Positions 40,123 through 42,162 of a stretch of 64,000 bases of DNA are shown piece by piece. The translations under genes and the position numbers were made by a program. Origin of the DNA: Thermoleophilaceae bacterium (GTDB taxonomy: Bacteria; Actinomycetota; Thermoleophilia; Solirubrobacterales; Thermoleophilaceae). Location: NCBI GenBank assembly GCA_035630335.1, contig DASQKV010000053.1, positions 12,063-76,062 on the forward strand. Direction: 5' to 3'. Under the pieces are notes generated by a model. It saw only the letters and a list, made by a program, of their open reading frames with translations, was not told where the DNA came from and did not search any database. Positions within the stretch are counted from its first letter, which is position 1. Every line of letters starts with the position of its first letter.

Positions 40123-42162
40123 CTAAGCCGGCGCGGGCTCGCGCTGGAGCGCCGGCCAGGCGGCCTCGCCGACCGTGCCCTCGGCACCGGTCCGGTGCCA
40201 GAGCTGCTCGGCGAGCTGCGGGGCGAGCGGCGCGAGTAGCTGGACGAGCACGGCGAGCGCTATGGCGAGAGCCTCGCGGTCGGGACCGGCGACCTCGCTG
40301 CGATGGTCGTTCACGCGCTCCTCGAAGTCTTGGATCCGGGCCAGCAGCTGCTCGACGTTGCGGGTCGCGCGGTGCAAATCCAGCCGCTCGAGGTTCTCCG
40401 CCGTCCGCGCCACCGCCGTGTCGCACCAGCCGGCGAGCCGGCGGCGCAGGCCGTCGCCGGCGTCGATGCGGGCGCTCGGGTCGACCCCGTCGAGGCGCGG
40501 CTCGGCGAACGAGCGCAGCTCCTCGAGGAACGCCGCGCTGCGGCGCAGCACCTCCTCCCCGCCGGTGAACGACTTGGTCGGCGCAGCGGCGTGGAGCAGG
40601 GCGAACCGCAGCGTGTCGCCCCCGTAGGCGGCGATCAGCTCTTGGCCGGACCGCGCGTTGTCCGCGGCCGGCTGCTCCGGGCCGGCCCCGTCGGCAGCCG
40701 CCGCCGGCGGCGCCGCCTCGAGCCTCAGCGTCTCGTGGATCAGCGTCGGCCCGTGCGGCTCGCCGTCCTCCGGCGCTCCCTCCGCGCCCGCGTCGCGCAG
40801 CGCCTTTGCGATCGTCCGCATGTCGAGCAGCGCCACGCCCGCCTCCGGCGGCTCGACGGTCTGTGCGGTCGGCAGCCAGCGCCGCAGGTCGGGGTGGTCG
40901 AACATCGACTCGGCGCGCTCGGCCGGGGGCACCGCCAGCGCGAGCTCGATCCATGCCGCCCCGAGCCGTGGATGCAGCGTCCCCGTGTCGCGCTTCGCGG
41001 CCGCGCCGCAGCGCGGGCAGTCGCAGTCGACGAAGTCAGCGCGCTCGGCGAGCGGGTTGCCGCGCGACTTGACGTCGAGGTCGGCGGGCGGCTTCAACGG
41101 CAGCTGGTCGAGCGGGACCGCGACCGTGCCGCACTGCTCGCAGTGCACCGCCGGGACCGGCGCTCCCCACGCGCGCCCGCGCGAGACCGGCATGTCCTCG
41201 GCGAAGAAGCGGACGGCGGGCGTCGACTTCGCGGGCTTGGACTCGACTTTCCAGGCGAGCCCGCCGGCCTTCGGCAGCCCCTTGGCGAGCGCCTTGTCGG
41301 CGGCGTCGGCGCTCGGCACGCCGAGGATCGCCGCCGGGCCGAAGCGAACGTCGATCGACGGCGAGACCAGTATCGGCAGCGGCTGCGCAACTCCGGGCAC
41401 CTGTGCCGACATCCCGATCTCGAGCGCCGGCAGCTCCGCGACCGGCGTCTCGGCCCAGTCGCCGCGCCGCAGCTCGTCGACCTGCTTGCGCAGACCGGGA
41501 TCGTCGAGCCACTGCTCCAGCTCCGGGCGCTGGGTCGAGAAGCCGACGAACTCCGCAGAGCCGGCGGCGTCGGGGTGCGGGGTGAACAGCGTCAGCGTCG
41601 TCCCGTCGAGCGCCGTCGCCTCGAGCTCGAAGCCGTCGATGCGCGCCAGCAGCTTGCGCTGGGCGGCGCGCGCGGCGTCGCTCCAGCCGGTCAACTCCTC
41701 CAGCCGGCGGTCGTTCTCCTCGTTGAAGCCGCCGGTCTTCAGGTACCAGCCCTTGCCGCCGCGCTGGTAGACGAGCCCCGCCTCGAGCAGCTTCGCGAAC
41801 AGCCACTGCGACCAGCGGTAGACGTCCGGGTCGTCGGTGCTCAGCGCACGCTCCCAGTCGAGCGAGATCGCGAGGCCGTCGAGCTGACGCCGCAGCGCGT
41901 CGCGGCGCGCGGCGAGCCACTCCGCCGTGCTCTGCCCCTCGCCCGGCTTGACCGCCGTCGCGAAGGTGTCGAAGCCGATCGTGAACAGGACGTCGTCGCC
42001 GCGCGCCCGGTGGAAGCGGGCCTGGGCGTCGGCGATCGCGTACCCGCGCATGCGGGTCGGGTCGAGGTCGCCACCGACCGGGGGACAGGTTACGAACACA
42101 TATGAGTCAGTAGACACGAGTGCAATCGATCTTCGTCGTCGCCGGATCGTCAAACCCGACAC
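40123..42162 (-). CDS. LeuRS-like paralogue lacking both class I catalytic signatures (pseudo-synthetase, or a decaying duplicate)
   Basis: Clear similarity to the LeuRS at 53364..55772 (FTIGFDTFATAV/FSIGFDAFGLPAE; DWERALSTDDPDVYRWSQWLFAKLLEAGLVY/DWERVFVSSDEEQYRWSQWLFLAFLEAGMLY; zinc motif CEQCG...CPRCG). The HIGH position reads PPVGGDLDPTRMRGY. The KMSKS position is replaced by an Ala/Pro-rich stretch (EAAPPAAAADGAGPEQPAADNARSG). GTG starts at 42162 or 42117. Confidence 0.8.
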   Translation of the reverse strand: MSGLTIRRRRRSIALVSTDSYVFVTCPPVGGDLDPTRMRGYAIADAQARFHRARGDDVLFTIGFDTFATAVKPGEGQSTAEWLAARRDALRRQLDGLAISLDWERALSTDDPDVYRWSQWLFAKLLEAGLVYQRGGKGWYLKTGGFNEENDRRLEELTGWSDAARAAQRKLLARIDGFELEATALDGTTLTLFTPHPDAAGSAEFVGFSTQRPELEQWLDDPGLRKQVDELRRGDWAETPVAELPALEIGMSAQVPGVAQPLPILVSPSIDVRFGPAAILGVPSADAADKALAKGLPKAGGLAWKVESKPAKSTPAVRFFAEDMPVSRGRAWGAPVPAVHCEQCGTVAVPLDQLPLKPPADLDVKSRGNPLAERADFVDCDCPRCGAAAKRDTGTLHPRLGAAWIELALAVPPAERAESMFDHPDLRRWLPTAQTVEPPEAGVALLDMRTIAKALRDAGAEGAPEDGEPHGPTLIHETLRLEAAPPAAAADGAGPEQPAADNARSGQELIAAYGGDTLRFALLHAAAPTKSFTGGEEVLRRSAAFLEELRSFAEPRLDGVDPSARIDAGDGLRRRLAGWCDTAVARTAENLERLDLHRATRNVEQLLARIQDFEERVNDHRSEVAGPDREALAIALAVLVQLLAPLAPQLAEQLWHRTGAEGTVGEAAWPALQREPAPA

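Follow-up and report, generated by a model that had tools for sequence, protein, structure and literature searches.

The 64,000-nucleotide (nt) stretch of Thermoleophilaceae bacterium DNA analysed here (contig DASQKV010000053.1, positions 12,063 to 76,062), called the window and numbered from its first letter, carries on its minus strand a gene that derives from leucyl-tRNA synthetase (LeuRS) and lacks both ATP signatures of that family, HIGH and KMSKS. The gene stands at the end of a biosynthetic cluster that includes a LysW-type amino-group carrier protein (AmCP), and follows a gene for a glutamine amidotransferase (GATase). Between the two lies an RNA gene that has the shape of a tRNA with a large structured insertion in its D-loop. 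The elements of this module are as follows.

40123..42117, minus strand: LeuRS-derived paralogue ('A-type'), predicted to be dead in aminoacylation; 664 amino acids (aa) from a GTG at 42117, the longest open reading frame (ORF) reaching to 42162
42169..42372, minus strand: tRNA-shaped RNA gene, 204 nt, recognised by an Rfam tRNA match, covariation and a covariance model
42373..42430, minus strand: conserved spacer, 58 nt, from the GATase stop codon to the 5' end of the RNA, with invariant blocks in a five-genome alignment
42431..43030, minus strand: stand-alone class I GATase, 194-199 aa, GuaA-N/PabA-like (TIGR00888, 88 bits, under the cut-off)

The LeuRS-derived gene and its origin

An earlier, sequence-only reading had described an open frame of 679 codons that aligns along its length with the LeuRS at 53364..55772, and had cautioned that in such GC-rich DNA long frames persist by chance. 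We find the frame uninterrupted at 40123..42162(-), with a GC content at the three codon positions (GC1/2/3 = 0.76/0.53/0.93) of the kind that genuine genes show in this window of 71% GC, and the protein aligns end to end with that of 53364..55772(+) (34% identity, E = 1e-132). Translation most likely starts at the GTG at 42117 (V16, 'VSTDSYVF'), giving 664 aa. This codon is preferred because the orthologues begin there, with GTG or TTG at the equivalent position 33-66 nt past the 3' end of the RNA, and because the GTG of the longest ORF, at 42162, stands only 7 nt beyond the end of the conserved RNA gene. Against TIGR00396 (bacterial leucine--tRNA ligase) the paralogue scores 220.8 bits, under the cut-off of 548.4. 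Pfam and NCBIfam return weak class I synthetase matches only, among which the anticodon-binding domain PF08264 reaches 40 bits (cut-off 25), in agreement with the earlier view that the C-terminal anticodon-binding-like region is retained. Proteins of this kind bear the annotation 'leucyl-tRNA synthetase' or 'class I tRNA ligase family protein'.

A search over 5.8 billion proteins recovered short forms that make up one family and range in identity from 88% to ~48%, and scans of genomes and metagenomes added more divergent A-type orthologues, bringing the overall range to 31-88%. Orthologous ORFs were extracted by anchoring on the RGYxxxDA motif; long spurious ORFs arise in GC-rich DNA. More than 50 A-type orthologues have an intact frame, and every large deletion among them is in frame. 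The closest pairs, with dS of 0.3-0.7, give a ratio of non-synonymous to synonymous substitution (dN/dS, NG86 method) of 0.24-0.31. When genome pairs are matched, the paralogue has 0.40 and the catalytic LeuRS 0.21-0.29, so the A-type evolves faster than the catalytic enzyme; across relatives its values, 0.24-0.40, are not near 1. The sole near-neutral part is the linker that replaces the KMSKS loop (dN/dS ~0.9). NG86 is biased at 93% GC3 and the bias inflates the ratio, and the conclusion of purifying selection is therefore conservative. The intact frames of more than 50 orthologues, together with a dN/dS well below 1, answer the concern about chance frames. An AlphaFold2 model of the paralogue is confident (pLDDT 91.6, pTM 0.89), with disorder confined to the same linker, and in Foldseek it resembles the LeuRS of N. 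gonorrhoeae, T. thermophilus and E. coli (TM (TMq) 0.75-0.80). The paralogue is a real, selectively maintained gene, and we reject the pseudogene reading because of the intact orthologue frames, the dN/dS below 1 and the confident fold.

We read the anatomy of the protein from an alignment with T. thermophilus LeuRS and 26 relatives, and compared residues between 52 A-type sequences and 40 catalytic relatives; the roles given to active-site residues are partly those that we take from the T. thermophilus and E. coli structures. The N-terminal ~45 aa are missing, as had been noted. The loss of HIGH likewise stands: the window protein has D-P-T-R opposite T. thermophilus H49-M-G-H52, and across the A-type H49 has become D (41/45), G51 T or S and H52 R or Q, whereas H..GH is 100% conserved in the 40 catalytic relatives. 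The KMSKS loop has been swapped for an Ala/Pro-rich linker, as first described, which varies in length and sequence across orthologues and is disordered in the AlphaFold2 model. No HxGH or KMSK-like motif occurs anywhere in the A-type family, and a search for displaced equivalents of the two signatures came up empty. The D80 equivalent and the SRQRxWG peptide, which we take to be the Asp that binds the amino group of the amino acid and the acceptor-end peptide of LeuRS, are 100% conserved in the 40 catalytic relatives and relaxed in the A-type. Judged from these residues, the paralogue is unable to activate leucine or to aminoacylate.

Other modules have been lost unevenly. The first zinc module (DWCxxC...CWRCH, 34 aa, four Cys) is deleted in every A-type member; the second (VHCEQCG...CPRCG) is kept in the window protein and missing in 17 of the 52 A-type relatives, so that the earlier statement that the zinc-ribbon Cys pairs are retained holds for the second module and fails for the first. 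The window protein keeps the CP1 editing-like domain, with TPHPDA for TTRPDT and GPA for the GTG motif (PF13603, 23.6 bits, cut-off 25), and the Asp pair of the editing site (T. thermophilus D344/D347) is invariant in CP1-containing A-type members. CP1 is missing in 7/52 A-type sequences; a whole subclade lacks it through an in-frame deletion and still has the paralogue gene, the RNA and the GATase. In the opposite direction, six residues of the old catalytic core (D323, P325, R399, A403, L446 and R449) are invariant in 52/52 A-type sequences, and R399 is His in 40/40 catalytic forms. Mean column conservation of the anticodon-binding domain is 0.78 in the A-type versus 0.54 in the catalytic enzymes. 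The losses, taken with the family's own invariant residues, therefore point to a changed function and not to a lost one. Two ideas about the altered core were dropped: CP1, the best conserved region in full-length forms, was considered as the functional core until the subclade without it was found, and a GGDLD loop considered as a PP-loop-like new ATP site was rejected, G-D-L being ancestral in LeuRS (SGDLH in T. thermophilus).

The origin of the gene was examined in a bootstrapped neighbour-joining tree (573 columns, T. thermophilus as outgroup), a distance-based method in which long-branch effects are possible. The A-type is monophyletic (100%) on a long branch and groups with catalytic paralogues that we call B-type (92% with P0047, 70% with all B-type), and the cluster's own LeuRS falls in a separate C-type clade (98%). 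The closest catalytic relatives of the A-type are each linked to an RNA homologous to the one described below, a tRNA with an insertion ('insertion-tRNA'). Because the A-type groups with the B-type and the C-type stands apart, the paralogue probably descends from a LeuRS lineage with insertion-tRNA partners, and would not be the copy of the neighbouring LeuRS (53364..55772) that the word duplicate had implied.

The tRNA-shaped RNA

The interval between GATase and paralogue is better conserved than the flanking genes in a five-genome alignment, and the 3' ~50 nt of the RNA are identical across genomes whose flanking proteins share 49-72% identity. The RNA has a perfect acceptor stem of 7/7 bp, in which GCGUCCG at the start of the block pairs with CGGGCGU at its end, followed by U8, A9, a D-stem GCUC/GAGC and a D-loop AAUCGGUA with A14, G18, G19 and A21, so that the U8-A14 pair is present. 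A structured insertion of ~130 nt sits exactly between A21 and G22. The anticodon stem-loop GCGGC-CUUUCAA-GCCGC displays the anticodon UUC, and the 3' part comprises a 4-nt variable loop, a T-arm with the T-loop UUCGAGU and the discriminator A73; CCA is not encoded. The Rfam tRNA model (RF00005) matches 42171..42247(-) at 35.5 bits (gathering score 29), and the equivalent spot in four other genomes also lies above the gathering score, the orthologues scoring 33-45 bits. RNAs of this UUC type are 191-206 nt long with a D-loop region of 127-141 nt, outside the canonical tRNA size of ~70-95 nt. ARAGORN, run on the window and nine loci, calls no UUC-type element, and Rfam has no family for the insertion.

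Covariation was assessed with 23 distinct sequences and a consensus structure of 54 pairs. In this consensus 99.7% of cells are paired, compared with 27-47% when the partners are slid, and compensatory change is seen at six pairs (24 cells), against 7.4 +/- 2.2 cells in shuffles, none of 500 of which reaches the observed value. All compensatory changes lie inside the insertion, the tRNA helices being invariant. The insertion also has an optional 11-nt hairpin tip, as well as 1-nt indels among orthologues. A 61-codon ORF that overlaps the RNA at 42165..42350 was rejected on the basis of the 1-nt and 11-nt indels and the compensatory pair changes.

When each species was represented by a single genome, a scan located the invariant 3' portion of the RNA in 11 metagenome-assembled genomes of Thermoleophilaceae/Solirubrobacterales, in single copy each, and a metagenome scan in which the anticodon loop was left free gave 18 loci. 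The complete metagenome-assembled chromosome OY970313.1 (2.6 Mb) is among the sequences with the module. Where flanking DNA is available, each copy with the CUUUCAA loop has a GATase gene on one side and an A-type paralogue on the other. RNA and paralogue co-occur in all ~25 loci from the RNA scans, with the RNA on the same strand, 33-66 nt before the start codon. A covariance model of the UUC type scores 221 bits on the window RNA, its only match in the window.

The 58-nt spacer ahead of the RNA (TTAGGTAGT..., plus two AGGAGG-like purine runs) may be a promoter, a processing leader or part of the transcript; a sigma-70 promoter scan over 39.9-43.2 kb returned nothing. The one 'terminator' predicted between GATase and paralogue is the hairpin of the RNA insertion itself. 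Separately, RNAs without the 11-nt tip (alignment columns 77-87) go with CP1-less paralogues and tip-bearing RNAs with CP1-containing ones, L015 and L028 being exceptions. The association may reflect protein-RNA co-evolution, a reading that is confounded by phylogeny, as the pattern could go back to a single event.

The LysW cluster and the wider insertion-tRNA family

Beyond the GATase the cluster continues as follows.

43068..43890, minus strand: diaminopimelate epimerase (DapF) homologue (TIGR00652, 122 bits, cut-off 114.65; synteny)
43955..45106, minus strand: enzyme of the pyridoxal-phosphate (PLP)-dependent aminotransferase fold, GntC/VioD-like (profile match and synteny)
45103..46359, minus strand: ATP-grasp ligase, L-amino-acid-ligase-like (Pfam ATP-grasp_4 and LAL_C2 in orthologues)
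46328..47503, minus strand: class I/II aminotransferase (profile match and synteny)
47496..48400 (5' end approximate), minus strand: LysZ/ArgB-like amino-acid kinase ([LysW]-aminoadipate/glutamate kinase models, under their cut-offs)
48413..49500 (5' end approximate), minus strand: LysY/ArgC-type semialdehyde-forming reductase (TIGR01850, 331 bits, cut-off 233.6)
49558..50460 (5' end approximate), minus strand: LysX/RimK-type ATP-grasp ligase (TIGR00768, 152 bits, above the cut-off)
50448..51758, minus strand: diaminopimelate-decarboxylase-type PLP decarboxylase (TIGR01048, 346.5 bits, cut-off 297.9)
51882..53150, plus strand: homocitrate/isopropylmalate-synthase-like (HMGL-like) enzyme (profile match)
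53183..53353, plus strand: LysW-type amino-group carrier protein, 56 aa, with a CPECxxx...CRECxxx zinc ribbon and the C-terminus ...SDWGE
53364..55772, plus strand: LeuRS of catalytic type ('C-type'), HVGH and KMSKH present, start 11 nt past lysW

The neighbourhood is unchanged in genomes where the paralogue has 72%, 58%, 52% or 49% identity to the window protein. The conserved order runs from the diaminopimelate-decarboxylase-type gene through LysX, LysY/ArgC, LysZ, the aminotransferase, the L-amino-acid-ligase-like ATP-grasp enzyme, the GntC/VioD-like PLP enzyme and DapF to the 194-aa GATase, a ~300-nt gap and the paralogue; the homocitrate-synthase-like gene, lysW and the C-type LeuRS are transcribed divergently from the rest, so that a LeuRS homologue stands at each end. 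Further loci with enough flanking DNA all show the same order, the paralogue following the GATase at the end of the LysW cluster. Wherever the flanking sequence suffices, the paralogue is thus beside a lysW cluster, in keeping with the link to an AmCP cluster that the sequence-only reading had proposed.

The GATase is the most conserved protein of the module, with 80-87% identity in all loci and a dN/dS of 0.03-0.06 in the closest pairs, and these GATases form a tight clade-specific family. The LysW orthologue carries PF21344 (Zn_ribbon_LysW), and PF22626 is also found in related clusters. The arrangement of homocitrate-synthase-like gene, lysW and LeuRS is conserved in related genomes (L008, L009). 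The C-type LeuRS is itself atypical: it reaches 420 bits with TIGR00396, whose cut-off is 548, has neither the C-terminal tRNA-elbow domain nor the leucine-specific domain, carries the editing motif T-x-H-x-D-A at the canonical T252 site, lacks the GGxEHAxLH motif and has 'GADGGGYFFDQR' in place of the canonical 'GGVEHAVLHLLYSRF'. Neither a LysJ-type (class III) aminotransferase nor a LysK-type (M20) hydrolase is among the cluster genes of the window or the related loci. The cluster at 42431..53353 (both strands) may thus represent an undescribed AmCP pathway, in which the GATase could be the releasing gamma-glutamyl hydrolase. An IleRS gene at 36067..39609(+) converges on the 3' end of the paralogue, an IleRS proximity that recurs in L001-L003 and L009; the window locus thus has three homologues of class Ia synthetases inside 20 kb.

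A relaxed scan and the inspection of neighbourhoods uncovered the same RNA architecture with other anticodons, always with 7/7 acceptor pairs, insertions of 127-191 nt and a shared core motif. The covariance model built from UUC-type RNAs only detects all the other types full length at 55-88 bits, compared with 44-48 bits for ordinary tRNAs. These RNAs adjoin synthetase paralogues that are catalytic LeuRS or related to ArgRS. Insertion-tRNA(UAA) adjoins catalytic B-type LeuRS genes, lying upstream of them in L005 and L010 and divergent from them in L040; insertion-tRNA(UGG) lies downstream of a catalytic LeuRS (L034, L038), and one with the loop CUUUGGC lies upstream of a catalytic LeuRS (L035). 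Insertion-tRNA(UUU) is found upstream of ArgRS-like paralogues and the UCU type downstream (L027, L037, L022, L025). The positions of two groups are given below.

L005:9771-9982 and L010:9762-9971: insertion-tRNA(UAA) with A73, upstream of LeuRS genes at 10001
L027:1058-1312, L037:4442-4696, L022:2051-2270, L025:4117-4337 and L041:11751-11953: insertion-tRNAs (UUU, UCU or CCU) paired with ArgRS-like paralogues

The ArgRS-like paralogues of L027 and L041 score 94-101 bits against TIGR00456 (cut-off 262) and retain HVGH; the others were placed by tblastn. ARAGORN calls tRNA-Arg(UCU) at L022:2199-2271 and L025:4116-4189, and both calls are wrong, the true 5' halves lying ~150 nt upstream with 7/7 acceptor pairs. 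Standard tRNA finders thus miss or mis-call insertion-tRNA genes.

Biosynthetic genes accompany the B-type LeuRS. In loci of the L005/L010 kind, among them that of the 'class I tRNA ligase family protein' of Solirubrobacter soli, AurF-like and GNAT genes come after the LeuRS gene and are translationally coupled, and the set of LeuRS, insertion-tRNA(UAA), AurF-like and GNAT genes looks like a dedicated charging-and-transfer operon. L040 (the context of P0047, 1-22220) holds four synthetase paralogues, namely two ArgRS-like proteins, one of class II Lys/Asp type and LeuRS-B, along with lysine 5,6-aminomutase subunits, a PabB-like enzyme, a chorismate mutase, a GNAT protein and a P450; its insertion-tRNA(UAA) is encoded by the other strand (9613-9842), and a peculiar tRNA of normal size with the anticodon UGA lies at 17490-17562(-). 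At 50% identity, the closest outgroup to the GATase family belongs to L041, a homologous LysW cluster with the same gene order that ends in the GATase, an extra PLP enzyme, insertion-tRNA(CCU) and an ArgRS-like paralogue with HVGH. Set beside the window, L041 therefore indicates that two lineages have attached an insertion-tRNA and a class I paralogue, of different families, at the same place in the pathway.

A putative carrier RNA, its alternatives and known systems

The gene arrangement suggests that a tRNA-like carrier takes part in the LysW pathway. The reading that we favour, and hold to be somewhat more probable than not, is that the non-catalytic paralogue serves as the protein partner, for binding or transfer, of the dedicated RNA encoded upstream of it. 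This agrees with the earlier proposal of a repurposed, non-catalytic tRNA- or ligand-binding protein linked to an AmCP cluster, which the gene comparisons support and the dedicated RNA sharpens. The RNA would be processed like a tRNA, receive CCA and be charged by a catalytic enzyme. One candidate is the LeuRS beside lysW (53364..55772), because LeuRS ignores the anticodon and both A73 and U8-A14 are present; the other is GluRS, because of the invariant UUC anticodon. An actinobacterial LeuRS charges a tRNALeu with a short variable loop, U8-A14 acting as an identity element (PMC6614811). The paralogue would dock the RNA as LeuRS docks tRNALeu, and would then hold or present the acylated 3' end for a chemical step of the cluster. 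This step might be an aminoacyl transfer to an amine, as with SbzA (discussed below), or the formation of an amide fed by the adjacent GATase, a variant suggested because the GATase is stand-alone and lacks another obvious synthase partner. We regard the linkage of gene and RNA as functional and not merely positional because homologous RNAs lie upstream, downstream or divergent of catalytic LeuRS and ArgRS-like paralogues, because the A-type groups with the RNA-linked B-type, and because the L041 cluster ends in insertion-tRNA(CCU) and an ArgRS-like gene.

Several points weigh against this partnership. The pairing of protein and RNA is proposed from gene linkage. Parts of the family can dispense with the SRQRxWG peptide, the D80 equivalent, the second zinc module or even CP1 in its entirety, and the peptide relaxed in the A-type is the one that presumably contacts A73/C74 in E. 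coli LeuRS; a passive binder would therefore fit better than a precise transferase. The paralogue and its catalytic relatives alike lack the C-terminal domain with which canonical LeuRS binds the tRNA elbow. With no ATP-binding site left, an amidation coupled to the GATase would need a pre-activated substrate, and a Glu-type anticodon paired with a Leu-derived protein makes the identity of the cargo ambiguous.

The constant position of the RNA, on the same strand and 33-66 nt upstream of the start in all of the ~25 A-type loci with no terminator detected between, also weighs against it, as it would suit a cis-acting role there. In that case the RNA would be a tRNA-mimic leader of the paralogue mRNA, resembling the thrS operator, and the protein, which lost catalysis and kept its RNA-binding domains, an autoregulator or operon regulator with no pathway chemistry. 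We consider this unlikely. Homologous RNAs lie downstream (L034, L038, L022, L025) or divergent (L040) of their synthetase partners; all elements of a working tRNA are kept (U8-A14, G18G19, the T-loop and the perfect 7-bp acceptor stem); the anticodon loop is invariant though LeuRS-type proteins do not read the anticodon; and in the homologous cluster the synthetase belongs to another family and is matched by an Arg anticodon.

A role in decoding is about equally improbable. Here insertion-tRNA(UUC) would be charged with an amino acid other than Glu (e.g. Leu, by the cluster LeuRS) and decode GAA, as a means of recoding or deliberate mistranslation, with the A-type paralogue modulating or sequestering it. 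The invariant anticodon loop and a frame that fits the tRNA tertiary fold are in line with such a role, as are relatives that include both cognate pairs (UAA with LeuRS, UCU/CCU with ArgRS-like proteins) and anticodon-shifted ones (UGG with LeuRS, UUU with ArgRS-like proteins), and ProRSx/tRNAProA offers a precedent (PMC9437257). However, the partner synthetase appears to be dead, an extra domain of 130-190 nt in the D-loop is unprecedented in elongator tRNAs, and the consistent embedding in biosynthetic clusters favours metabolism over decoding.

Still less probable is a free-standing trans-editing factor, in which CP1 would remove a non-proteinogenic amino acid, a product of the cluster, from wrongly charged tRNALeu or from the special RNA. 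The invariant Asp pair in CP1-containing members and the position of CP1 among the best conserved regions speak for it, but a whole subclade has deleted CP1 in frame and kept the gene, the RNA and the GATase, and TPHPDA in place of TTRPDT and GPA in place of the GTG motif are shared with catalytic relatives, which makes these altered motifs lineage traits and not a specialisation. The decaying duplicate that had been offered as an alternative, its frame persisting by chance in GC-rich DNA, would account for the stepwise loss of modules (N-terminus, first zinc module, KMSKS, second zinc module, CP1) and the faster evolution, yet it is very hard to reconcile with the monophyly of the family, frames intact in every genome examined and down to ~31% identity, large deletions all in frame, a dN/dS of 0.24-0.31 in the closest pairs and up to 0.40 elsewhere with the linker alone near 0.9, family-specific invariant residues such as R399 and a confident AlphaFold2 fold. 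That the protein is still a synthetase with displaced HIGH and KMSKS equivalents is the least credible of all, in spite of the Rossmann-fold core predicted with high confidence, given that the family holds no such motif, that the loop at the KMSKS site is unconserved, disordered and variable in length, that the amino-group-binding Asp is not conserved and that TIGR00396 gives 221 bits versus 548.

A wider interpretation can be offered, tentatively and with clearly less confidence. The insertion-tRNAs might constitute an undescribed tRNA class of Thermoleophilia (a 127-191-nt domain between A21 and G22; UUC, UAA, UGG, UUU, UCU and CCU anticodons), each with its own LeuRS- or ArgRS-like paralogue, that forms orthogonal aminoacyl-carrier systems for biosynthetic clusters rather than for, or besides, the ribosome. 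At the window locus the RNA would carry an activated carboxyl alongside the amino carrier LysW, with the LeuRS-derived protein as transferase or adaptor together with the GATase. If the RNA is a working carrier, a single pathway would unite two carrier logics, the amino group being borne by a protein and the carboxyl group by an RNA.

Known systems share parts of this arrangement. Duplicated LeuRS with lost or reduced aminoacylation have been described as LeuRS-I of Sulfolobaceae and LeuRS2 of Halobacteria (PMC9437257). As at our locus, a second LeuRS is under selection, keeps a tRNA-binding architecture, performs no normal aminoacylation and is thought to have a tRNA-dependent function outside translation. 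These proteins are archaeal, however, and LeuRS-I still forms Leu-AMP through an intact ATP site, whereas here both ATP signatures are gone and modules are deleted; nor is a dedicated RNA partner or a cluster context described for them, whereas the A-type gene always has a special RNA and a GATase gene beside it. SbzA, an IleRS-like aminoacyl transferase of the altemicidin/SB-203208 cluster, uses as acyl donor an aminoacyl-tRNA supplied by the housekeeping synthetase (PMC6331615). It too is a class Ia synthetase homologue in a biosynthetic cluster, with the same division of labour that we propose, but it retains HIGH and KMSKS in slightly modified form, charges weakly, and uses ordinary tRNAIle with no dedicated RNA. 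The A-type protein derives from LeuRS and is without both motifs, and the resemblance would be one of proposed mechanism only. ProRSx/tRNAProA and CysRS*/SelC* are co-evolved pairs of a synthetase paralogue and an anomalous tRNA (PMC9437257), in which, as here, the anticodon need not match the amino acid. In those pairs the synthetases are catalytic and the tRNAs of normal size and translational, whereas here the synthetase is predicted to be dead and the tRNA has a 130-nt insertion.

Other parallels concern the cluster as a whole. Our locus resembles the pylTSBCD cassette in that a biosynthetic cluster, here with an ATP-grasp ligase distantly like PylC, is joined to a dedicated tRNA and a synthetase-family gene. 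The cassette combines the biosynthetic genes for pyrrolysine with a dedicated synthetase and a dedicated tRNA; its synthetase, PylS, is catalytic, its small tRNAPyl reads a stop codon, and we know of no amino-group carrier protein or GATase in that system. With the LysW/AmCP pathways for lysine, arginine and secondary metabolites the cluster shares LysW with its acidic ...DWGE tail, homologues of LysX, LysZ and LysY and a homocitrate-synthase-like gene; it differs in having DapF, a LysA-type decarboxylase, an L-amino-acid-ligase-like ATP-grasp enzyme, GntC/VioD-like PLP enzymes, the GATase, two LeuRS homologues and the RNA. The closest analogue of the GATase, paralogue and tRNA module is perhaps GatCAB/GatDE, amidotransferases that depend on tRNA, in which a glutaminase subunit and a tRNA-binding subunit act on an acylated tRNA and in which GatB and GatE have an ATP-dependent kinase site. 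The coupling in our module is putative, no ATP site is evident in it, and its glutaminase would be a class I GATase where those systems use an amidase or an asparaginase.

Neither LeuRS-I and LeuRS2, nor SbzA, nor co-evolved pairs such as ProRSx/tRNAProA bring together a tRNA that bears a large D-loop domain, a synthetase stripped of both ATP signatures, a GATase and an AmCP pathway. Synthetase paralogues with a dedicated tRNA are already known, as are others that act outside translation, and it is the architecture of the RNA that appears to be new. Our literature searches on LeuRS paralogues with tRNA-like partners, on LysW with synthetases and on D-loop-insertion tRNAs found nothing specific, and the literature and Rfam, as far as searched, revealed no bacterial LeuRS descendant that lacks both ATP signatures and is under selection, no obligate linkage of a LeuRS descendant to a tRNA with a large structured D-loop domain, and no such pair with a glutamine amidotransferase inside an amino-group carrier pathway. 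The catalytic relatives would be a natural source of orthogonal synthetase/tRNA pairs, the D-loop domain serving as an identity element unlike any used in genetic-code engineering so far.

Elsewhere in the window, the stretch 25769..33414(-) has a GC content of 0.62-0.67, compared with ~0.72 in the rest. No rRNA operon or other Rfam family was found there (26-35 kb). It contains two very large ORFs, one of 1131 aa with no Pfam match and one of 1417 aa with NHL and fn3 repeats, and may be a horizontally acquired region that encodes surface proteins.

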